Made by a program: the position numbers and the translations under genes. Source: Betaproteobacteria bacterium (GTDB taxonomy: Bacteria > Pseudomonadota > Gammaproteobacteria > Burkholderiales > WYBJ01). From it: a stretch of 64,000 bases of DNA. The notes beneath the pieces were generated by a model. It had not been told where the DNA came from, ran no database searches, and was given only the letters and a program-made list of their open reading frames with translations. The stretch lies in assembly GCA_009377585.1 (NCBI GenBank), contig WHTS01000012.1:4867-68866 (forward strand), read 5' to 3'. How positions within the stretch are numbered: the first letter of the stretch is position 1; each line of letters begins with the position of its first letter. Below, piece after piece: positions 7,526 to 18,079 of this stretch.

Positions 7526-8406
7526 TACGCGGGTCCGGTGGCGTCGATCGCTGCGGGCAAGCCGTCGAACACCGTCGGATAACGCAGCTGCACGCCGAGC
7601 TCTTCTCGCATGCGCCGGTTCGACAGGCGGCGCGACTCGCTCATGAACGACAGCAAGGCGGCCGGGATGCGGCTCGCCGCTTGCGCGCGTGCGATGCGGG
7701 GCGGGCGCGGCAGGCCGGCGCGATCGGCGAGGAGATCGAACCAGTCGCCCATGCTGAGCTGCGTGTCGTCGCAGGCGTTGTAGATGCCGTGCGCGCCGGG
7801 ATGAGTAAGCGCCGTAACGCTGATTGCTGCGAGGTCGTCGGCATGGATGTGATTGGTGTAGACGTCGTCCTCAGGCCGGAGCACCGGCGTGCCTTTGCGC
7901 AGGCGCTCGAGCGGAAGCCGATCCGCGGCATAGATGCCCGGTGCACGCAGGATCACGCAGCGCACTGCATGGGCGCGTTGGAATGCCACGATCTGCGCCT
8001 CCGCGTCGACGCGGCGGCGCGCCCGATCCGTCGCCGGGTTCACCGCGCGCGTCTCGTCCACCCAGGCGCCTGCGCAATCGCCGTAGACGCCGCTGGTGCT
8101 GATGTACACGAGGCGCTGCGGCAACGCGCAGGAGGCCAGCATCGCGAGCAGGTTCGCCGTGCGCGGATCGGTCGTGTCCGTGCCCGCAGGCGGGGCGCAG
8201 TGCAGGACGTGGCTCGCGCGGCCGGCGAAGCGTCGCAGCGACGCCGGATCGTCCAGGTCGCCTGGTTCGATGGCGAGCCCCGGACGGGTCGGGATCTCGC
8301 GGACGCGTTCAGGGCGCACGAGCGCAGTGACGCAGAAGCGAGCGGTGAGCCGCGGCAAGGCGCGCTGCGCAATATCGCCGAAGCCGGCGATCAGGAGCGT
8401 GTTCAT
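7525..8406 (-). CDS. SDR-family NAD-dependent epimerase/dehydratase
   Basis: N-terminal Rossmann motif MNTLLIAGFGDIA, YISTSGVYGD, and the overall extended-SDR pattern. Confidence 0.8.
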   Translation of the reverse strand: MNTLLIAGFGDIAQRALPRLTARFCVTALVRPERVREIPTRPGLAIEPGDLDDPASLRRFAGRASHVLHCAPPAGTDTTDPRTANLLAMLASCALPQRLVYISTSGVYGDCAGAWVDETRAVNPATDRARRRVDAEAQIVAFQRAHAVRCVILRAPGIYAADRLPLERLRKGTPVLRPEDDVYTNHIHADDLAAISVTALTHPGAHGIYNACDDTQLSMGDWFDLLADRAGLPRPPRIARAQAASRIPAALLSFMSESRRLSNRRMREELGVQLRYPTVFDGLPAAIDATGPA

Positions 8407-8464
8407 GGCATCATGCTAGCTGCGAATGCGGCTCGCGGGGAAGCGGGTCCGTGTTGGAGATGTG

Positions 8465-9730
8465 ATGCTTCTCGGATGCATTGCCGACGATTTCACCGGT
8501 GCGACCGACCTGGCGAGCATGCTGGTCGCGGGCGGGATGCGCACGGTCCAGAAGATTGGAATTCCCCGGGATCGGTCGATCGCCGACGGCGCCGACGCGG
8601 TCGTGGTGGCGCTCAAGTCACGCACGATCGCCGCCGCCGATGCGGTCGCGCAATCGCTTGCCGCTTTGGAATGGCTGCGTGGCAGCGGCGCGCGCCAGAT
8701 CTACTTCAAGTACTGCTCGACCTTCGATTCGACCGATTGCGGCAACATCGGCCCGGTTGCGGATGCGCTCATGCAGGCGTTGGGCACCGACTTCACCATC
8801 GCCTGCCCGGCGCTACCGGCCAACCGGCGCACGATCTATCTGGGCCACTTGTTCGTCGGCGACATGCTGCTGTCCGATTCGCCCATGCGCCATCATCCGC
8901 TCACGCCGATGACCGACGCCAATCTCGTGCGCGTGCTCGGGCGCCAGACCCGGCGCAAGGTCGGCTTGGTTGCGTATCCCGAGGTTGCGGGCGGCTCGGA
9001 ACGTATTCGGGCCGCGTTCGATCGGCTGCGTGGCAACGGGGTGAACTACGCAATCGTCGACGCGTTGTGCGACGAGGATCTGAGTGCGATCGGCGCTGCT
9101 TGCGCTGATTTGCCGTTGGTCACGGCCGGGTCGGGCGTGGCGCTCGGGCTGCCGCAGAATTTCGTGCGCCAGGGGCTGCTGTCGCTTCGAAAGGACGCCG
9201 CGCTATTGCCTTCGGCGGGTGGTCGCGCCGCCGTGCTGGCCGGAAGCTGCTCCGAAGCAACGCGGCGCCAGGTGGCTGTCATGGCCAGGCACCATCCTGC
9301 TGTGGCGATCGATCCGTTGAGCGGCGGTGATGCGGATACGCTCGCGGGCTCTGCCATCGAGCGTGCGCGGGCCGATATCGCCGCTGGGAGGATCGTGTTG
9401 TTTTATTCCAGCGCCGAACCCAACCAGGTCGCGACGGTGCAGACGCAACTGGGTGCCGAACGGGCCGCTGCGCTGGTCGAAGGAGTGTTCGCGCAGCTCG
9501 CGCAAGAACTGGTCGCGCTCGGCGTGCGCCGGCTGGTGGTCGCGGGCGGCGAGACCTCGGGTGCGGTCGTCCAGGCGCTCGGCGTGAAGGCGCTTGCCAT
9601 CGGCGCGCCGATCGATCCCGGCGTGCCGTGGACCATGAGCCTCGGCGAGCCGCGCATCGCGCTCGCGCTCAAGTCGGGAAATTTTGGCGCGGACGATTTC
9701 TTCGACAAGGCGCTCGGGATGGCGTCGTGA
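8465..9730 (+). CDS. otnK: Four-carbon acid sugar kinase (3-oxo-tetronate kinase, YgbK/OtnK family)
   Basis: Start ATG 8465 after GGAGA. N-terminal CIADDFTGATD signature of the YgbK/DUF1537 kinase family. Followed by the class II aldolase-like partner. Confidence 0.85.
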   Translation: MLLGCIADDFTGATDLASMLVAGGMRTVQKIGIPRDRSIADGADAVVVALKSRTIAAADAVAQSLAALEWLRGSGARQIYFKYCSTFDSTDCGNIGPVADALMQALGTDFTIACPALPANRRTIYLGHLFVGDMLLSDSPMRHHPLTPMTDANLVRVLGRQTRRKVGLVAYPEVAGGSERIRAAFDRLRGNGVNYAIVDALCDEDLSAIGAACADLPLVTAGSGVALGLPQNFVRQGLLSLRKDAALLPSAGGRAAVLAGSCSEATRRQVAVMARHHPAVAIDPLSGGDADTLAGSAIERARADIAAGRIVLFYSSAEPNQVATVQTQLGAERAAALVEGVFAQLAQELVALGVRRLVVAGGETSGAVVQALGVKALAIGAPIDPGVPWTMSLGEPRIALALKSGNFGADDFFDKALGMAS

Positions 9731-9866
9731 GCGGGGCGGAAGCCGGCAAGGTCGCAGACGGAGCGCATTTCCCTCCGCCTTGCTTTACGCGCGGCCGAAG
9801 CCAAGCTATCCCGCGATCGTTTTGCATCCCGCTTGCGCGGCAATCGGCTCGGTAAAGGAACGTGCA

Positions 9867-10499
9867 ATGAAAGAAGCGACACTGCGCGAGGAAATCGCTG
9901 CGCTCGGCCGCTCGATGTTCGAGCGCGGGCTCACTCACGGATCGACCGGCAACATCAGCGCCAGGCTCGACGACGGCTGGCTCCTGACGCCTACCGGCTC
10001 CAATCTCGGGCGGCTCGATCCGGCGCGCATTTCGAAGCTCGACTGGAACGGGAGGCTGGTCGCGGGCGATGCACCGTCGAAGGAGTCGTTTCTGCATCTT
10101 GCGATGTACCAGGAGCGCGACAAGAGCGGGGCAGTCGTGCACCTGCATTCGGTCCATTCGGTCGCCGTCTCGGTGCTGGAACAGATCGACGCAGCCGATC
10201 CGTTGCCGCCGCTGACGGCGTACTATGTCATGCGCATCGGACGGCTCGCGCTGGTGCCGTATTACGCGCCCGGGGACATGGCGCTGGCCGAGGCCGTGCG
10301 TGGCGTGGCCGCGAAGCACCATGCCGTGCTGCTCGCGAATCATGGCCCGGTGGTCGCCGGATCGAGTCTCGCCGCTGCCGCGGACGCGGTCGAAGAGCTG
10401 GAGGCCACCGCGCAGCTCTATCTGCTGCTGCGCGGGAGCCGCGTGCGTGCGCTGACCGAAGCACAGGTTGCCGATCTGAAGCAACGTTTTCCGACCTGA
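9867..10499 (+). CDS. otnC: Class II aldolase/adducin-family protein (3-oxo-tetronate 4-phosphate decarboxylase, YgbL/OtnC-like)
   Basis: ATG 9867 after AAAGGAA. Motifs GSTGNISARL, VVHLHS, LLANHGPVV. Sits directly downstream of otnK. Confidence 0.82.
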   Translation: MKEATLREEIAALGRSMFERGLTHGSTGNISARLDDGWLLTPTGSNLGRLDPARISKLDWNGRLVAGDAPSKESFLHLAMYQERDKSGAVVHLHSVHSVAVSVLEQIDAADPLPPLTAYYVMRIGRLALVPYYAPGDMALAEAVRGVAAKHHAVLLANHGPVVAGSSLAAAADAVEELEATAQLYLLLRGSRVRALTEAQVADLKQRFPT

Positions 10500-10502
10500 C
10501 CG

Positions 10503-10985
10503 ATGGAGGAAGAGATGGCCGAACAGCCGCAATCCCTGCTGAGCGCAGCAGCGATCGCCGCGATGGCGGAGCGCAAGTTCCAGCACATGTTCAATGCCAA
10601 CGGGATCCGCATGACACGTTCCTTGAGCGACGCCTGCGGCTTGAAGCAGCTCGGCGTGCACCTGGTCCGGGTCGAGCCGGGGCGCGAATCGACCGAGTAT
10701 CACACCCATTCGCACGACGAGGAGTGGATCTACATCCTCTCGGGGCGCGCAATCGCCGAAATTGACGGGCGCAAGACCGAGGTCAAGGTCGGCGATTTCA
10801 TGGGCTTCGTCGCAGGTTCGGCGCCGCACACCATGAAGAACGAATCGACCGAGGATCTTGTGTATCTGGTCGGCGGCACCCGGCATGCCTACGACGTGGT
10901 CGACTATCCGCGCCGCGGCATCCGCTCCTACAAGTACGACGGCAAGCGCGACAACGTTGACACGAAGAAGCTCGGGGTGGAATGA
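10503..10985 (+). CDS. Cupin-domain protein
   Basis: Cupin metal motif HTHSHDEEWIYILSG...GDFMGF...PH. 160 aa. An alternative start at ATG 10515 follows GGAGGA. Confidence 0.75.
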   Translation: MEEEMAEQPQSLLSAAAIAAMAERKFQHMFNANGIRMTRSLSDACGLKQLGVHLVRVEPGRESTEYHTHSHDEEWIYILSGRAIAEIDGRKTEVKVGDFMGFVAGSAPHTMKNESTEDLVYLVGGTRHAYDVVDYPRRGIRSYKYDGKRDNVDTKKLGVE

Positions 10986-10989
10986 CCTA

Positions 10990-11068
10990 CTCATTGCGAT
11001 GCGTGGGTGAGTGGAGTGCTCCCCAGGATTGGGTGGTGTGGGCCGATATATCCAGTCCGATCCGATCG
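10990..11068 (+). other. Degenerate remnant of the 3' end of an Rhs/YD-repeat core (ends ...GRYIQSDPI)
   Basis: Translates to ...SPGLGGVGRYIQSDPI, the xGRYIxxDPIG core junction motif. It is truncated right after DPI and has an in-frame TGA upstream. A 29-nt stretch, 11040..11068, is 27/29 identical to 12378..12406. Confidence 0.6.
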
Positions 11069-11223
11069 CAGTACGCGCACCTTCGACCCCGCCTGCTCCA
11101 TTGCAGCGAGCAGGCGCCTCCACTACACTGGCCGCCAACAGGTCGTACGGCGCGATCCCGCCTGAGTGGCTCTTGGCTTGCGGCGGCGGTCGCGGATTCG
11201 ATGCTTACAGCCCGGAGGGGAAC

Positions 11224-12267
11224 ATGAACGCGCCTACCGCAACTTCCGCAGCCACGCGTCCCGCCGCTGTCCGTTCTGACGCGCCGAAGTTCGAGCTCGA
11301 TCCGAAGTGGCCCAAGCCGTTGCCCGAGGGCTGGATCACCGGCCAGCTGCCCTGCGTGTACGTCGATCACAATGACAGTATCCTGATCGTCAATCGCGGC
11401 AACATCACCGACGAAGAACGCGAGACCTGCATCCAGGCACCGCCGGTGATGATCTTCGATCAGGGCGGCAACCTCGTCCACGCCTGGGGCGACTGGGACG
11501 TGATGCCCTCGACGCCGCACAGCTGCGCGGTGGATCGCGACAACAACGTGTGGGTTTCCGCCAACGGCGACGGCATGGTGCAGAAGTACACCTACGACGG
11601 CAAGCTGCTGCTGCAGATCGGCCAGAAAGGGGTGTTCGACACGGCCGACGGCGGCAAGAAAGGCCCGGGGCTCAATGCGGCGCACGATCGCTTCAACAAG
11701 CCGGCCGGCATCGCCTGCGATCCGGCCAACGGCGACGTCTACTTCGCCGACGGCTACGGCAACCGCCGCGTGGTCGTGTTCGACAAGGACGGCAAATACC
11801 TGCGCCAGTGGGGACGGCAGGCGACGCCGGAAGAGATGGAAGCCGGCGTGGGCGGCGCGTTCGCCGAGGTGGTGCACAGCGTCGATATCGGCAACGACGG
11901 GCTGGTCTACGTGGGCGACCGCCAGGGAGACCGTGTCCAGGTGTTCGACAAGCAGGGCAACTTCAAGCGCAATATCTGGGTACGCACTGGCACGCCGCAG
12001 CTTCCCGACAAGCGCGGCACCGCGTGGTGGACGGCGTTCTCACGCGATGCGTCACAGAAATATCTGTACGTGATGAACGGGCGCAACGAGCAGGTGCACA
12101 TCCTCGATCGCGAGAGCGGGGAGATCCTGTCGAGCTTCGGCCGGCCGGGCCACCAGCTGGGCGATTTCACCCATGGGCACAGCATCGCGGTCGATACGCG
12201 CGGTAATCTGTACGTGGCGGAAACGAATTGGGGCCGGCGCGTGCACCGCTTCCGCCCGGCTGGCTAA
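11224..12267 (+). CDS. NHL-repeat beta-propeller protein (peptidyl-alpha-hydroxyglycine alpha-amidating lyase-like)
   Basis: ATG 11224 after GGAGGGG. Repeated NHL-type blades (VDRDNNVWVSANGDGMVQKYTYDGK, IACDPANGDVYFADGYGNRRVVVFDKDGK, VDIGNDGLVYVGDRQGDRVQVFDKQG, IAVDTRGNLYVAE). Confidence 0.8.
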   Translation: MNAPTATSAATRPAAVRSDAPKFELDPKWPKPLPEGWITGQLPCVYVDHNDSILIVNRGNITDEERETCIQAPPVMIFDQGGNLVHAWGDWDVMPSTPHSCAVDRDNNVWVSANGDGMVQKYTYDGKLLLQIGQKGVFDTADGGKKGPGLNAAHDRFNKPAGIACDPANGDVYFADGYGNRRVVVFDKDGKYLRQWGRQATPEEMEAGVGGAFAEVVHSVDIGNDGLVYVGDRQGDRVQVFDKQGNFKRNIWVRTGTPQLPDKRGTAWWTAFSRDASQKYLYVMNGRNEQVHILDRESGEILSSFGRPGHQLGDFTHGHSIAVDTRGNLYVAETNWGRRVHRFRPAG

Positions 12268-12363
12268 CACGCCACTTGCGCGCATCCGGCGTTGGGGCTG
12301 GCTGCGCAGCGTTCGGCGGTGTGATGCTCTACGCGTTTCGGGCTGCTGGCCGATACGTTGTAA

Positions 12364-12819
12364 GCAGCTGCCACCCTGGGCCGATATTTCCAATCCGATC
12401 CGATCGGGCTCGCGGGCGGCATCAATACCTATGCATATGTTCAAAGCAATCCGCTGACTTGGATCGACCCGGATGGTCGCCAGAGCAGAGAAGGAAGAGA
12501 ACGTCCGAGTGATCGAACCCCGCGAGACCGACCCGATGGGCCGTATGGTCCCATTGGTCAGGCAAGCACTGATCCTTCAAAAGTACCCACGCCCTCGGTG
12601 CCTTCGACGTCACTGGTTCCGACGACGTTCCAGGCATGCATGGCGAAAAATCTCGCCGACTGTCCACTCGCTGTAGTGGGTTCGTGCGCGCCAATCTGTG
12701 CAATTGCCGCTCCGACCGGACCTGGGGCATTAGGCTGCGCGATCGGATGCGCATGCACCATCAGCTACACGTGTTATGAGCTTAGCCGGATGCAGTGTAA
12801 CTACTTATCTGGCCGATAG
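12364..12819 (+). pseudogene. Orphan, 5'-truncated Rhs-family C-terminal cassette: core junction plus an unrecognised Cys-rich C-terminal tip
   Basis: The frame opens right after a TAA at 12361..12363 and has no plausible start. It encodes [38 protein letters not shown] (RHS repeat-associated core junction). This is followed by about 113 aa: an R/P/S/T-rich linker, then a hydrophobic tail with 9 Cys. Further degenerate core-like sequence lies in another frame at about 12320..12363. Local GC is clearly below the window average. Confidence 0.75.
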
Positions 12820-12838
12820 TCGTTCAGGGGACGACTCG

Positions 12839-13183
12839 ATGGTTACGATTCGAAAACGCGTTTACTTCAAGTGCCCGAAGTGTGGTCATGCGACGAGCTA
12901 TGCTCTTCAAATCGCCGGAGAGAAAAATAGCTACGTGTGCGAGCGCTGCAGTTCCATTTCGACCCCGAGGAACTATCTGCTCGCAAGCTTTGTTTACGGG
13001 GCGGTCCTCGGCGGGCTCATGGGCGTTATAGCCTATTGGATCTTTACTCGGCATCTGTTCACCGCATCGCCGGCGTTCGCGATATTGGCCGCCGTGCCTA
13101 TCGGGTTAATTCTTGCATGGCTTGTTGCGCCAATCCTGTCGCGAGTGTTTTACCGATGGACCTTGATAAAACCAGGTTCGTAG
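12839..13183 (+). CDS. Small membrane protein with N-terminal zinc ribbon; putative immunity protein for the adjacent Rhs tip
   Basis: ATG 12839 after AGGGGA, 20 nt after the toxin stop. CPKCGH...CERC zinc ribbon, then two or three hydrophobic helices (LLASFVYGAVLGGLMGVIAYWIF; AFAILAAVPIGLILAWLVAPIL). Low GC, like the toxin tip. Confidence 0.6.
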   Translation: MVTIRKRVYFKCPKCGHATSYALQIAGEKNSYVCERCSSISTPRNYLLASFVYGAVLGGLMGVIAYWIFTRHLFTASPAFAILAAVPIGLILAWLVAPILSRVFYRWTLIKPGS

Positions 13184-13288
13184 CGACGAAGGTCCAGTAA
13201 CGGGCAATCGCGGCGATGGACTGGCGTAATGCATCCTGAGTGGTCTCGTTGGGCGCCTGAGTTTTGCGAAGGACGAGGCAGTGCTGCG

Positions 13289-14218
13289 TCAAGGCTGCGA
13301 TTCAGCGTCATCGTCGCCCAAGAGCTTGCCCTGCTCGGGCCCGCGCTCATGGCGAATGACCTGCACGATGCTGTAGATGGCCTTGAGCTTGCCGAGCTCG
13401 ATCCACTGGCGGATCTGTAGCTTCACGTGCAGGATGTCGTTCTTACGGAAAGCCGCCTCGCCCGACTGCACGGCGTGCATGAAGGCTTCATCCTCGATCG
13501 CGACGTAAATCGTGCGGCTGCCATCGGAAACGCGCCACTTGTTCTCTTCCTCGAACGAAGGCGCGACGATGGTGACGCGCGTGTCGGTGACGGAGATCGT
13601 CTCGCCCTCGTGCTCGGTCGGGGCGACGAAGGCGGGGAAGTCGTCGCGCGTGACCTCGACGGTGTCTTTGCCCTTATGGCGGACCTTGAAGAGGTCGATG
13701 CCGCGGCTCTTGAGCGGCTCGACGATGCGCTCGACTGCTTTGCGGGCGCGCAGATTCTTGAACAGCTCCCACACGCGCCGGTCGACGCTGACGGGTTCGG
13801 CATCGCCTTCGAAGGTGATCTTCACCCGTTCGGTATGCTCGACGGTGACGGAGGTGGTTCTCCGACCGCGGCCATGCTTGATGAGCTGGAACAGGCCGAA
13901 CCCTGTGCCGAGGACACCGGAAATCCCGAGGATCTGGAAGAGGTTCGCCCAGGCGCTCGCCTCGCTGCTGCCGAAGAGACTGACGATCTGCTGATAGAAA
14001 GTGGCGAGCTCGAGGCTGACCTCGAAAGAACCCTGCTCGAAGCCGGCGCGCACGCGAAGCCGGATCTGCACCTCGGGCGGCAAGGCCAGGTCGTGGGCCT
14101 CGTCGAAGAGCTCGGCGAGCGCGAGCAGCGCCGGTGCCAGATCCTTCGCGTCAATCGCGCCTTCGGCGACATCCTCCCCGTCGTACACGATGCTGAAGCG
14201 TGCATCGTCTGCCGCCAT
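13289..14218 (-). CDS. Hypothetical protein, 309 aa, no recognisable domain (last gene of the XRE-ORF6N operon)
   Basis: Long ORF with good coding character, 27 nt downstream of the ORF6N gene. Acidic N-terminal region, one Gly-rich hydrophobic segment (ANLFQILGISGVLGTGFGLFQLI) followed by KHGRGRR, and a beta-rich charged C-terminal half. Confidence 0.7.
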   Translation of the reverse strand: MAADDARFSIVYDGEDVAEGAIDAKDLAPALLALAELFDEAHDLALPPEVQIRLRVRAGFEQGSFEVSLELATFYQQIVSLFGSSEASAWANLFQILGISGVLGTGFGLFQLIKHGRGRRTTSVTVEHTERVKITFEGDAEPVSVDRRVWELFKNLRARKAVERIVEPLKSRGIDLFKVRHKGKDTVEVTRDDFPAFVAPTEHEGETISVTDTRVTIVAPSFEEENKWRVSDGSRTIYVAIEDEAFMHAVQSGEAAFRKNDILHVKLQIRQWIELGKLKAIYSIVQVIRHERGPEQGKLLGDDDAESQP

Positions 14219-14245
14219 GGAACTCCTCCCCTTCTTCTTAGCTGC

Positions 14246-14800
14246 TTACTTCTCCTGCGGATGCACGAAGCCGATCGGCCGTCGCCTGGGTACGGGCTCG
14301 GGCGGGGCCATGAGCTTCTTGATCGCGTCGAGGATCTCGAAGATCGTCTCGTCCTGGGTGTCGATGCGCTGCTCAAGGGCGGTGAGCTTGCGAGCAAGGG
14401 CCTTGTGCGTGGCGAGGACCTCGCGCATCTGCACGAAGGCGCGCACGACGTAGACGCCCATCTCGATGGCGCGAGGGCTGTTGAGCACGTTGGCGGCCTG
14501 GATTGCGCCATGTTCGGTGAAGGCGAAGGGAGTGAAGCGCGGGTCGCGGTGCTTCTGGGAACCGGTCGCAATTTGCGACCGGTTCAGCGTATCGAGCTCG
14601 GCACGGGTGAGCCGGAACATGAAGTCCTCGGGGAAGCGCTCGATGTTGCGCTTCACCTGCTCGTTGAGCCGTCGAGTTTCAACGCCATAGAGTGACGCGA
14701 GGTCGGCATCGAGGATGACCTTGTGGGCGCGTACGAGAAGGATGCGGCTGGTGATGGCCTCGACGGCGATCGCGACCGATGCTCGCTTCGATCCCGCCAT
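14246..14800 (-). CDS. ORF6N (KilA-N-like) DNA-binding domain protein with C-terminal coiled coil
   Basis: ILLVRAHKVILDADLASLYGVETRRLNEQVKRNIERFPEDFMFRLT...FTEHGAIQAANVLNS is the ORF6N pattern seen in phage and mobile-element proteins. 5-nt gap to the upstream XRE gene. Confidence 0.85.
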   Translation of the reverse strand: MAGSKRASVAIAVEAITSRILLVRAHKVILDADLASLYGVETRRLNEQVKRNIERFPEDFMFRLTRAELDTLNRSQIATGSQKHRDPRFTPFAFTEHGAIQAANVLNSPRAIEMGVYVVRAFVQMREVLATHKALARKLTALEQRIDTQDETIFEILDAIKKLMAPPEPVPRRRPIGFVHPQEK

Positions 14801-14805
14801 GGGTC

Positions 14806-15198
14806 TCAGTGGCTCGTGCCTGCGAGCACGTCTTCGAGCATCTGAATGACGAGCGGCTGCTTGGCGCGGGGAAGCTGCGCGATGCGCTCCATCTGCTGCT
14901 GGAGCTTCGGTGCCGGCCCGCGTTTACCGGCCGCGCGCACGGGCTCGCCGAGGAGCTCTTCCACACCGACGTGGAGCGTGCGCGCCATTTGCACGACCAT
15001 CGACACTGGCGGGCGGGCGCGTCCCACCGCGTATTGGGGCAAGCGTTTGCTGGGCGATGCCGAGCTCGTCGGCGAGCGCCTGCTGCGACAGACCCTGGAC
15101 TTGCGTGCGGCGGCGAGCCGCGCGCCCAGGTCCTTGAAGAACTGCTGTTCCCCGGGGTTCATGGAAGGCGCTGCTGCAAGCTGCGAGGCGCTCAGCAT
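14806..15198 (-). pseudogene. XRE-family HTH regulator interrupted by two compensating 1-nt frameshifts
   Basis: Frame A gives MNPGEQQFFKDLGARLAAARKS... and ...QYAVGRARPPVSMVVQMARTLHVGVEELLGEP...KRGPAPKLQQQMERIAQLP. The HTH core QGLSQQALADELGIAQQTLA is encoded only in another frame, between the homopolymer sites 15097..15098 and 15036..15039. Confidence 0.7.
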
Positions 15199-15228
15199 AA
15201 GGCCGTGTCCGAGGAGGATGACCGACTC

Positions 15229-15245
15229 TACTCACAATGTGAGTA
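15229..15245. promoter_or_regulatory. Perfect palindrome TACTCACA-A-TGTGAGTA, candidate operator upstream of the XRE-ORF6N operon
   Basis: 8-bp inverted arms, 31 nt upstream of the first ATG (15198) of the XRE gene, within a lower-GC intergenic region. Confidence 0.5.
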
Positions 15246-15506
15246 ACTATATCGCAGAGCGATTGGTACTCAAAACCCTTTCGACAGCGTGCCAGGTCGG
15301 CGGCGAAACCGCACGAGACGGAGTGTGGCGCGGATTCGATCGTTAATCGCCGAAACGCATCTCTTGCCGCTTGCCGCCGGCGTTGCTCTTTGCTGGTTAA
15401 AGCGATCCTGGCCGAGTGCGCCTTCATTCTCGAGCTGCAAGCAACGGATGAATCAAGCAAAGTAGCCTCGACTACGACGCAAGCATGTCGGGTCAACTAT
15501 AGAGTA

Positions 15507-16016
15507 TCAGCGCTGCCTGCTGTGAGCGGGCGGTGTTGTATCAGGCGGCGTAATCATGCCTGCTCGCGCCGCGAACTTCTTGGCGGTGGGGTGATAGACG
15601 TAAGGCTGGTCGTCGACGAGCGCAAGAAATTCCGCGCGTGCCTGCACCGCGCGCTCGAAGGCGCCGCGTTCGCCGTACTTGCACACCGCGAAAGTCCTTG
15701 TTATTTGCTTACCGTCAGGACGTTTGAGCCGCGCCTGCCACGAACCCTGAGGCTGATTGTATGGGCGGATGAAGTGCACGCCGGGCACGCCGCTGGTATT
15801 GGACGAGCGAACGAGCTGATGAAATTCGCGCTTCGCGAGCGTGCGGGTTCGGGCGAGCACCCGATCGCGCCAGGCGATAGCGGCGGCCAGGGCCTTCTTC
15901 GAGCCCCCGCATCGAAGATCGTAGAAGCTCTTGTAGTAGGTCTTGCCGCGCCGGCGGATCGCGACCGCCCAACACCAGACGCTGGGTTTGGCTTGGATAC
16001 GGCTGATGGCGTACAT
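15507..16016 (-). CDS. AP2/ERF-type DNA-binding domain protein (two AP2-like repeats)
   Basis: Track ORF 15507..16220(-) trimmed to ATG 16016. Motifs WCWAVAIRRRGKTYYKSF and SGVPGVHFIRPYNQPQGSWQARLKRPDGKQITRTFAVCKYGERGAFERAVQAR are typical of bacterial AP2 domains. Confidence 0.7.
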   Translation of the reverse strand: MYAISRIQAKPSVWCWAVAIRRRGKTYYKSFYDLRCGGSKKALAAAIAWRDRVLARTRTLAKREFHQLVRSSNTSGVPGVHFIRPYNQPQGSWQARLKRPDGKQITRTFAVCKYGERGAFERAVQARAEFLALVDDQPYVYHPTAKKFAARAGMITPPDTTPPAHSRQR

Positions 16017-16054
16017 AACGATGCCGAACAGAATGGATCGGCTACACTCTCGCT

Positions 16055-18079
16055 TCAGTTGCCGGTTCGCGGGACGCGCTCCTCGAACTCGCGTTCGAAC
16101 ACGTTCGCATCGCCTTCGTAGGCTGCGAGCTTCCCGCGGATGACGAACTCCCGCTTGGTGCACGAGACCTGCGTCCGACTCTGCGTGCGGATGCGCCAGT
16201 CCCCGCGCTCGAACTCCCACGTCCAGTCCACTCTAGCGGTCGCGGACAGCGGATCGTCCTCGACCACGCAATAACGCTCGGTCGAGCGCGCTTCCGCGAT
16301 CAGATCGATCTCGTCGTAACGGTTGCGCCCGCTCGTATCGTGCACCTCGACCACGGTCAAACCCTTGCCTAGATCGGTCGTGATGACGCGATTGCGGCTG
16401 CCGGGCGTGAGCGCCGTGCGCGCGACCGGGGCAGCGGATTCCGGCGCCTTGAAGCGCGACAGTTTGCCGTCGGCGCGCGAGGCTGGCCGAATCGGCAGCT
16501 CGAGCGCGCTCTTTCCGGTGACGAGCGTGAGCGTTACCGGCTCGGGCGAAGGCCACACGAGTGGCCAATACGTGGTCGAGAGCGCGACCCGGATGCGGTG
16601 GCCCTTGGCGAACGAGTAGGCGCAGTCGATCAGATCGAAGCGCACCGTGTACTGCTTGCCCGGCGTGAGCCGGGCCACCTTGTCGGCGCCTTCACGATGC
16701 GTGAGGTTGAAGGTCTGGTACGTGACGCGAGTGGATGCGCCGTCGGGCGCGACATCGCACACGCGCACGCACACGAACGCGACCGGCCGATCGACCGAGA
16801 ACGTGAGCGTGACTGCGGGGGTGCCGAGGATCTCGAGATTCTTGCGCAGCCGCGCGCTGTCGAAGCAGATCGACTGGCCGTCGTCGGCGCGCTGATCGCC
16901 GGGAAGCTCCGGACTGGGCCCGTGCTGGAACCAGGGCATGAGCTCGCCGGCGCCAAGGCCGAGCGTCTGCGGCGATTTCCACGCAAGCTTGGCCGAGCGC
17001 CCGGCGCGTGCGTCGAGCGTGCCGCCGGCATTCATGAAAAAACGCTGTGGCCTGATGCGCGGGCTCGGCCATTGCGCTTCGCTCACCCAGCGCCCGGGCG
17101 ATTCGGCATAGAAGCTCTTGGCGGGCACCGAGCGCGGCATCCAGGCGATGAGTTTGGGATCGCGCGTGACGCCCGTGTCCCGGCCGCGCATCCAGTGGTC
17201 GTACCAGCGCAGCGCTTCCTGCAGGAAACCGATCGCGGGCCCGGGCATGCCGAGGTGCCCGTAACGATGGCCCCATGGCCCGATGAGGCCTTTGCACGGC
17301 GCCTCGAGCTTGCTCAGCGATTCGCTCACCGCCCCGACGTAGGCCCCGTCGGCCCAGCCGCTCACGGCGAAGAACGGCACCTTGATGCGTGCGTGGTCGA
17401 TCGCGCGGCTGCGCCAGTACTTGTCGAACCTCTGGTGCTTCAGCGCCGAGATGATCTGCGGCGTGTTGTTCTCCACGCGCGCCATCCACATTTCGCGCCA
17501 GCGGCTGCCGACCAGCGCCGGATCGGGTGGCCGCGACTTGTAGCCGAACACCTGGCTGGACCAGCGGATCGCTCGCAGGAGAAAACATCCGCCGCGATAG
17601 ACCTGACTGTAGCGAAAACGGTCGGGTGCATACGACTGCGCGATCACGGCCTTGAGCTGCGGCGGCGCGCGAAACGCCGTCTGTATGCCCTGAAAGCCGC
17701 CCCACGATATCCCGAACATGCCGACCTGGCCATCGCTCCATGGCTGTTGCGCGATCCAAGCGAGCACCTGCACGGTGTCTTCGGATTCGTCGCTCGTGGC
17801 GAACACGCCCTGGATGCCGTCGGAATCACCCGAGCCGCGAATGTCCACGCGCATCGTGGCATAGCCGTGGCCGGCGAAGTAGCGGTGATGCATGGCATCG
17901 CGCGGCGCGTAGATGTCACGCTTGCGATACGGAATGACCTCGATGATGGTCGGCACGCGCTGCGTCGATACGATATCGGGCAGCCACAGCTTGGCGGCCA
18001 GCCGCACCCCGTCGGGCATTGGAATCCAGCAATCTTCGGTTTCGGTGTACTTGTGGGGGAAGCGGGTGAGGGTTTTCAA
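16055..18079 (-). CDS. CocE/NonD-family (S15, X-Pro dipeptidyl-peptidase-like) alpha/beta hydrolase
   Basis: 674 aa. Motifs GYATMRVDIRGSGDSDG, the nucleophile elbow GMFGISWGG, and a C-terminal jelly-roll domain. TTG start. Confidence 0.88.
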   Translation of the reverse strand: MKTLTRFPHKYTETEDCWIPMPDGVRLAAKLWLPDIVSTQRVPTIIEVIPYRKRDIYAPRDAMHHRYFAGHGYATMRVDIRGSGDSDGIQGVFATSDESEDTVQVLAWIAQQPWSDGQVGMFGISWGGFQGIQTAFRAPPQLKAVIAQSYAPDRFRYSQVYRGGCFLLRAIRWSSQVFGYKSRPPDPALVGSRWREMWMARVENNTPQIISALKHQRFDKYWRSRAIDHARIKVPFFAVSGWADGAYVGAVSESLSKLEAPCKGLIGPWGHRYGHLGMPGPAIGFLQEALRWYDHWMRGRDTGVTRDPKLIAWMPRSVPAKSFYAESPGRWVSEAQWPSPRIRPQRFFMNAGGTLDARAGRSAKLAWKSPQTLGLGAGELMPWFQHGPSPELPGDQRADDGQSICFDSARLRKNLEILGTPAVTLTFSVDRPVAFVCVRVCDVAPDGASTRVTYQTFNLTHREGADKVARLTPGKQYTVRFDLIDCAYSFAKGHRIRVALSTTYWPLVWPSPEPVTLTLVTGKSALELPIRPASRADGKLSRFKAPESAAPVARTALTPGSRNRVITTDLGKGLTVVEVHDTSGRNRYDEIDLIAEARSTERYCVVEDDPLSATARVDWTWEFERGDWRIRTQSRTQVSCTKREFVIRGKLAAYEGDANVFEREFEERVPRTGN

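Follow-up and report, generated by a model that had tools for sequence, protein, structure and literature searches.

A 3.8-kb islet with an orphan Rhs toxin tip in an uncultured Burkholderiales bacterium and its likeness to integrase-primase elements of Rhs tip arrays

How much of the DNA between a cupin gene and a CocE/NonD hydrolase gene in an uncultured betaproteobacterium was acquired, and from what kind of element? The interval lies in a stretch of 64,000 nt (the window; contig WHTS01000012.1, here C86:4867-68866) of a metagenome-assembled genome (MAG; GCA_009377585.1) of 6.76 Mb in 242 contigs, with 64.9% GC, 99% completeness, and 4.85% contamination, which represents an uncultured soil or water bacterium of a Burkholderiales-order genus. 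A first-pass annotation had read positions 10986-16054 as an accessory island of about 5 kb holding Rhs debris, an NHL-propeller gene, an orphan toxin tip with a putative immunity gene, an XRE-ORF6N-unknown operon, and an AP2-domain protein, and all of these were recovered by open reading frame (ORF) listing and profile searches (Pfam, TIGR/NCBIfam, PADLOC, and PHROG hidden Markov models), on which our gene calls are based (Table 1). The unnamed operon member is a LAPAL-motif protein. Comparison with two further MAGs, G003 (JBOIEI01), the closest relative, and G001 (AOB1), a second sister species, revealed that the genome-specific insertion is 3.8 kb long, and with moderate confidence we read it as the surviving, decaying arm of an integrative element resident in arrays of Rhs toxin tips.

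By blastn, contig C509 of G003 is collinear with the window at 92-95% identity over 8170-9730, 9850-10976, 11090-12271, and 16049-16329, and the homology blocks stop at 12271 and resume at 16049. Genes of G003 follow the order kinase, aldolase, cupin, Uma2, NHL, and CocE, with 42 nt between the NHL and CocE stops forming a hairpin, and a second G003 contig (C367) has the same NHL-CocE junction. In G001, the NHL gene is followed by a TctC gene and then by CocE, and the 3.8-kb segment is absent. These insert boundaries, together with the empty site in the closest relative, are the direct evidence for an insertion-sized difference at this locus. The proposed 5-kb island therefore contains a true insertion, but a shorter one, accompanied by a separate 113-nt genome-specific segment, and the NHL block between the two is shared with the sister genomes and conserved in place. 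Nor does any relative have the empty site that had been predicted, with the cupin gene directly beside the CocE/NonD gene; G003 reads cupin, Uma2, NHL, 32 nt, and CocE. The Uma2 gene is also found in G001 and has no orthologue in the genome studied here. No target-site duplication was found around the insert, whose ends share CAC microhomology alone, and the sole direct repeat (30 nt) recovered by the repeat search lies on either side of the NHL gene, not of the insert. The island genes have no second copies in the genome, save for an ORF6N paralogue of 40% identity. Two further genomes, G004 and G005, were tried as empty-site references and were uninformative, with their cupin and CocE genes lying in other contexts. 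In this uncultured Burkholderiales genus, the DNA between cupin and CocE is a hotspot of turnover.

Table 1. Coordinates of the features of the cupin-to-CocE/NonD interval, numbered from the first letter of the window (a dot marks features without a strand)
Feature	Position	Strand	Evidence or remark
Cupin gene	10503-10985	+	ORF and profile search
Genome-specific segment, 113 nt	10977-11089	.	Replaces 618 nt with the Uma2 (PF05685) gene of G003; contains the Rhs debris W1
W1, 30-nt Rhs core-end copy, encodes GRYIQSDPI	11039-11068	+	Repeat search (family D4), local alignment
Conserved NHL block: ~130 nt upstream plus NHL-propeller coding sequence (11224-12267)	11090-12271	+	blastn against relatives; NHL/SGL Pfam matches
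Genome-specific insertion, 3,777 nt	12272-16048	.	Ends of blastn blocks; replaces a 32-nt convergent-terminator hairpin of G003
Orphan Rhs C-terminal tip	12364-12819	+	TIGR03696, 48 bits (cut-off 32.5); homologues P0121 and P0122
Putative cognate immunity gene, zinc ribbon plus two transmembrane segments, 114 aa	12839-13183	+	Weak zinc-ribbon matches; Shine-Dalgarno-like AGGGGA
LAPAL-motif protein, 309 aa	13289-14218	-	NF053583, 4.6e-75; PDLC05015 (PADLOC PDC-S42), 2.1e-84; phrog_3243, 1.3e-62
ORF6N (KilA-N-like) anti-repressor-type protein, 184 aa	14246-14800	-	PF10543, 6e-29; PDLC04869 (PADLOC PDC-S05), 4.3e-47; phrog_4792 anti-repressor
XRE-family regulator gene	14806-15198	-	No Pfam helix-turn-helix match; intact homologues upstream of LAPAL in L096, L116, and L094
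Sigma-70-like promoter, -35 TTGAGT, -10 TATAGT, with the palindrome that follows it	15229-15273	-	Promoter scan; one match, equal to the shuffle expectation and weak alone
AP2-domain protein, 169 aa	15507-16016	-	PF00847, E 8.6e-7; score 29.6, below the gathering score of 33.3
CocE/NonD gene	16055-18079	-	ORF and profile search

The kind of element from which the insert may derive is suggested by the neighborhoods of LAPAL genes, which were collected from four look-ups and from 80 metagenome loci returned by an alignment query. Loci L094, L096, L115, L116, L118, and L121 carry a tyrosine integrase, a DnaG-type primase, and an XRE gene reading into a LAPAL gene whose product is 59-65% identical to that of the window. 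Orphan Rhs tip arrays surround these blocks, with core ends to either side (five to the right in L094), and tblastn placed Rhs core ends beside LAPAL in L094, L096, L115, L118, L121, L158, and L181; contigs that extend far enough also show the integrase and primase. L094 and L116 share 5.65 kb at 79% identity, a block whose edges coincide exactly with the LAPAL stop and the 3' end of the integrase gene and which has Rhs-core homology on both sides. A second integrase after two cassettes in L115 indicates tandem units. As in the window, LAPAL is convergent with the neighboring tip and immunity genes in L094, L096, L115, and L121, and L118 has another gene intercalated between XRE and LAPAL, as ORF6N is here. 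LAPAL proteins of less than 50% identity never adjoin Rhs and have varied neighbors, and in the LAPAL tree the protein of the window falls in the same well-supported clade as those of the element blocks.

Under the reading that we favor, the complete element would consist of the tyrosine integrase, the DnaG-type primase, XRE, and LAPAL, facing an orphan Rhs tip and immunity gene in convergent orientation; in the window, the integrase-primase arm is missing, ORF6N lies between XRE and LAPAL, and AP2 stands at the other end. No integrase of this element type was found in the assembly, the islet has neither integrase nor primase, and tblastn with the integrase and primase of L094 was blank on contig C86, because of which the islet is filed as a remnant rather than as a member of this family. 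That no integrase and no tRNA had been seen is borne out, the latter across the entire 64-kb window. The route of acquisition, previously left unclear, can now be narrowed, since the layout of tip/immunity and LAPAL-XRE fits one arm of the integrase-primase elements of Rhs orphan arrays. In L096, the orphan Rhs cassettes on either side of the element block (375-674, 7632-7931, 8611-8910, and 9851-10150) all begin sharply at a near-identical block of ~22 nt, ATGCCGATCATCTGGGCACGCC, which encodes ADHLGTP and lies ~290 nt upstream of the DPxGL junction, with identity falling to ~70% past the block; this 22-nt block is a candidate recombination site of the element family.

The frame of the orphan tip opens after a TAA at 12361, has neither a start codon nor a YD-repeat shell, and encodes an Rhs core end (PxxxxDPxGL region of TIGR03696; W2 at 12377-12406), a Pro/Ser/Arg-rich linker, and a Cys-rich hydrophobic C-terminal domain of ~65 aa, which looks like a small membrane- or periplasm-acting toxin. 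The Cys-rich domain (12598-12816) belongs to a conserved family without a Pfam model that occurs both on orphans and on long Rhs proteins. The immunity gene begins 20 nt past the tip stop. An all-against-all HMMER search found a 93%-identical tip on a longer Rhs core from an unrelated metagenome (P0121), where a gene likewise starts 20 nt downstream, and a 73%-identical orphan tip (P0122, locus L107) that is followed by a 70%-identical immunity homologue, and more distant relatives of the tip domain cap long Rhs proteins. Judged from these sequences, the tip circulates in the environment. Used as a single-protein query against metagenome contigs, the toxin part of the tip gave no match.

The tip is the only TIGR03696 match in the genome. 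Neither a genuine RHS-repeat gene nor a PAAR gene was found in the 99%-complete assembly, an absence that is not absolute because Rhs genes can drop out of MAG assemblies, and a type VI sheath gene is present. The only RHS_repeat match in the genome (27.8 bits) lies at C102:30595-30687 in a giant gene whose open frame runs unbroken for 9,594 aa and which is not a canonical Rhs gene.

Scraps of Rhs core ends around the NHL gene give the locus some depth in time. W1 matches W2 at 28 of 30 positions with sharp edges, and in G001 a decayed core-end remnant of ~75 nt lies 17 nt past the NHL stop (local alignment; none of 300 shuffles reached the score), unaccompanied there by any other gene of the island. 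An Rhs end at this site thus seems to predate the split of these species. The tip, by contrast, is compositionally fresh and nearly identical to a circulating copy. Most simply read, the core-end scrap is an old landing pad and the low-GC tip a more recent replacement, with loss following in G003. W1 and W2 were also considered as attL and attR of the element family, a proposal that proved unsupported: the DPxGL junction of intact arrays showed no matching exact core, and the copies vary at synonymous sites.

The NHL gene itself is regarded as an ancestral resident, because the identity of its block to G003 (94.7%, by blastn) equals that of the flanking core genes (93.4-94.5%) and because it sits at the same locus in G001 (87.6%). 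Its GC content at third codon positions (GC3) is 0.856, compositionally native. No Rhs motifs were found near NHL genes in 79 other loci, and therefore NHL is not habitual Rhs cargo. The window, G003, and G001 all part at one position ~130 nt ahead of the NHL start codon, so that the NHL block acts as a self-contained unit whose flanks change. In G001 (L014, 30-100), a tandem duplication of ~30 nt (cagactcataccccgtt[a/g]gaaa...) lies directly upstream of the conserved NHL promoter region. In addition, NHL genes of 80-88% identity occur in several MAGs deposited under implausible names (Bordetella parapertussis, Streptomycetaceae), which evidently are uncultured Betaproteobacteria.

Composition separates the parts of the interval, and it bears on whether the insert is a recent arrival. 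Against all windows of the genome, the 5-kb block of the first-pass annotation has 62.5% GC (15th percentile) and the 3.8-kb insert 61.7% (11th percentile), both unremarkable as wholes. The tip and immunity gene together have 56.1% GC (1.4th percentile), with GC3 of 0.553 for the tip and 0.62 for the immunity gene, which alone has 53% GC (0.7th percentile), and the gap at 15199-15506 has 55.2% (1.8th percentile). Core genes have GC3 of 0.80-0.86, and the LAPAL, ORF6N, and XRE genes, at 0.82-0.85, are host-like. The dips that had been seen by eye at 12.42-13.29 kb and 15.20-15.51 kb are thus real, but the view that everything in the 5-kb block differs in character is not confirmed: atypical composition is limited to the tip, the immunity gene, and the promoter gap, and there is no island-wide deviation.

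A resident origin is the first alternative to consider. Position 12272-16048 may have been ancestral to the three species, lost by clean deletion in G003 and by TctC replacement in G001, and what is seen here would be a decaying old resident. The host-like GC3 and the damaged XRE gene would suit such an origin, as would the absence of a mobility gene and of a target-site duplication, and G001 does have its degenerate Rhs core end at the same position after NHL. But that remnant comprises ~75 nt of core end only, G003 has a well-formed bidirectional hairpin in two contigs, and the tip and immunity gene are not ameliorated in GC3, with a 93%-identical tip in an unrelated metagenome; we consider this account unlikely.

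The regulator operon was examined as the other substantial part of the insert. The LAPAL protein is a full-length member of NF053583, which NCBIfam names "LAPAL motif-containing putative phage structural protein." Its AlphaFold2 model has a mean predicted local distance difference test (pLDDT) value of 82; Foldseek found no whole-protein match in the PDB and, for the C-terminal part of the model, weak SSB/OB-fold resemblance alone, and it matched the model to uncharacterized phage proteins in BFVD. A scan of viral contigs with the single protein gave no match. ORF6N adjoins LAPAL in none of 88 other LAPAL loci, and L092 and L093 carry a short relative of its C terminus: the last 57 residues of ORF6N (14246-14419) show 44% identity to an 86-aa protein whose gene immediately precedes LAPAL (L092, 5645-5905; L093, 658-918), in a LAPAL locus where a PIN gene precedes the 86-aa gene. 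This hints at a LAPAL-partner domain independent of the ORF6N domain.

By three-frame translation, the helix-turn-helix of the XRE gene (~15036-15099) is out of frame between two compensating 1-nt shifts, with GLSQQALADELGIAQQTLA readable in the other frame. Both frameshifts lie at short homopolymer runs, and the rest of the protein and the 5-nt spacing to ORF6N are kept; the shifts may be real, which would suggest selection for downstream translation, or may be assembly errors. Directly after the predicted promoter, within the low-GC gap, lies a perfect 8-1-8 palindrome, TACTCACA-A-TGTGAGTA, at 15229-15245, a candidate operator.

These features also admit a second alternative, namely, that the islet is a functional defense and competition islet that was acquired independently, through recombination or with the help of an integrase supplied in trans, unrelated to the integrase-primase elements, with XRE-ORF6N-LAPAL as an anti-phage system (PDC-S05 plus PDC-S42) and the tip and immunity gene as a reserve cassette. 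The PADLOC matches of LAPAL and ORF6N are strong, the ORFs other than XRE are intact, the promoter has its palindromic candidate operator, and one PDC-S05 representative cut T7 and T5 plating ~1000-fold in E. coli B (bioRxiv 10.1101/2024.09.26.614923). That member, however, had a RhuM domain rather than ORF6N, PDC-S42 is a candidate defense family, the XRE helix-turn-helix is scrambled, no rhs gene is present onto which a reserve tip could recombine, and the ORF6N-LAPAL adjacency recurs nowhere else in the loci compared. The literature search found no published test of PDC-S42, and PADLOC had no matches for the tip, the immunity gene, XRE, or AP2. Taken together, we judge independent acquisition of a working system to be quite unlikely.

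Very improbable is a joining of foreign DNA into contig C86 during assembly or binning, for which the fragmentation into 242 contigs, the 4.85% contamination, and the foreign composition of the tip and immunity gene might be cited, but most of the insert has host-like codon composition, an Rhs remnant lies at the same site in G001, C86 spans 91 kb, and the order of the sequence on either flank is that of two sister genomes; an artifact would thus need two exact chimeric joins in intergenic DNA.

Descent from an integrase-primase element of Rhs arrays remains the reading that we prefer, and several points weigh against it. As no remnant of the integrase or primase is detectable in the window, descent rests on the layout and on the 59-66% LAPAL and ~42% XRE identity, and the host-like GC3 of the LAPAL operon would fit an operon that is old or was donated by a close relative. 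The window's LAPAL stands on a long branch of unresolved position within its clade; the LAPAL of L092 (66%) and several at 56-61% are not beside Rhs; and ORF6N and AP2 are not parts of intact elements. The two core-end copies, W1 and W2, stand on either side of the NHL gene instead of the insert, a placement for which the model offers no explanation. Moreover, the host genome is a MAG, so the junctions and the XRE frameshifts are known from assembly alone, and three genomes are too few to tell gain here from loss in G003.

The fate of the genes after arrival can be sketched from their surroundings. Having no start codon and no Rhs shell, the tip presumably can be neither made nor delivered. 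On the plus strand, the stretch from NHL to the immunity gene showed no terminator-like site; since the native NHL-CocE terminator is gone and a Shine-Dalgarno-like sequence belongs to the immunity gene itself, this gene is probably transcribed with NHL by read-through, and if expressed it could protect against neighbors firing this toxin. Transcripts of CocE/NonD probably run on into AP2, which starts 38 nt past the CocE/NonD stop. Expression of the ORF6N-LAPAL operon may be derepressed or constitutive, because its XRE repressor would lack a DNA-binding helix, and it may act as phage-defense or mobile-element cargo.

It is also possible, if short of probable, that the islet is the fossil of a dedicated tip-carrying element in which XRE-LAPAL formed the control or maintenance module, with W1, W2, and the G001 remnant as scars of repeated site-directed tip replacement at a pad that outlived its rhs gene. 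If so, such elements would seed toxin/immunity cassettes even into genomes without an Rhs delivery shell.

Homologues of the AP2-domain protein (n = 207) come mostly from Burkholderiales and Rhodocyclales, many of them with PF00847, and their contexts vary, including XRE-AP2 pairs. For instance, in L108-L112 an AP2 homologue of 66% identity, present in more than 100 contigs, always follows a 97-aa XRE gene, and this pair is divergent from two unannotated genes (367 and 316 aa), forming a recurrent small islet in a Burkholderiales MAG.

Orphan rhs-CT/immunity cassettes and C-terminal displacement, for which Steele et al. 2017 (PMC5727410) cite Jackson et al. 2009 (PMC2935791) and Koskiniemi et al. 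2014 (PMC3967940), offer a close parallel to the tip. Like those cassettes, the window has a start-less Rhs core-end fragment (GRYxQSDPIGL...), a variable toxin domain, a small immunity gene, a foreign composition, and the same tip on a longer core elsewhere. Unlike them, its tip is not downstream of any rhs gene, no Rhs shell is found in the assembly, the core homology spans ~30-70 nt versus ~300 nt in typical arrays, and a second 30-nt scrap lies across an unrelated NHL gene. For bee-gut Snodgrassella and Gilliamella, Steele et al. 2017 (PMC5727410) mention Rhs-associated integrases in passing, with their role not demonstrated. With the integrase-primase-XRE-LAPAL blocks, the window shares a tip/immunity pair convergent with an XRE-preceded LAPAL, at the LAPAL and XRE identities given above, but it is without integrase and primase, has ORF6N intercalated, and has AP2 beyond the promoter. 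The matches to PADLOC PDC-S42 and PDC-S05 are full-length, both being candidates by genomic association, and in the window the two form one operon with a damaged regulator; the tested PDC-S05 representative that protected E. coli B against T7 and T5 was of the RhuM type.

The islet links the unstudied LAPAL/PDC-S42 family to integrase-primase elements inside Rhs tip arrays, which suggests that the calling of LAPAL as a defense gene may owe something to its presence on these elements, and the XRE-LAPAL pair provides a concrete handle for finding them. Its value is that of a dated relic, an orphan Rhs tip and immunity gene surviving without an Rhs shell and apparently wired into neighboring host transcripts. 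Acquired interbacterial defense islands consist of orphan immunity genes and are associated with recombinase-type elements. The islet resembles them in keeping an immunity gene without a usable toxin, which may protect against the effectors of neighbors. It differs in that it has one cassette where they have arrays, lacks a recombinase, and lies in a host of another phylum. Set beside these systems, the islet is an ordinary small accessory competition/defense region of a known kind, in decay.

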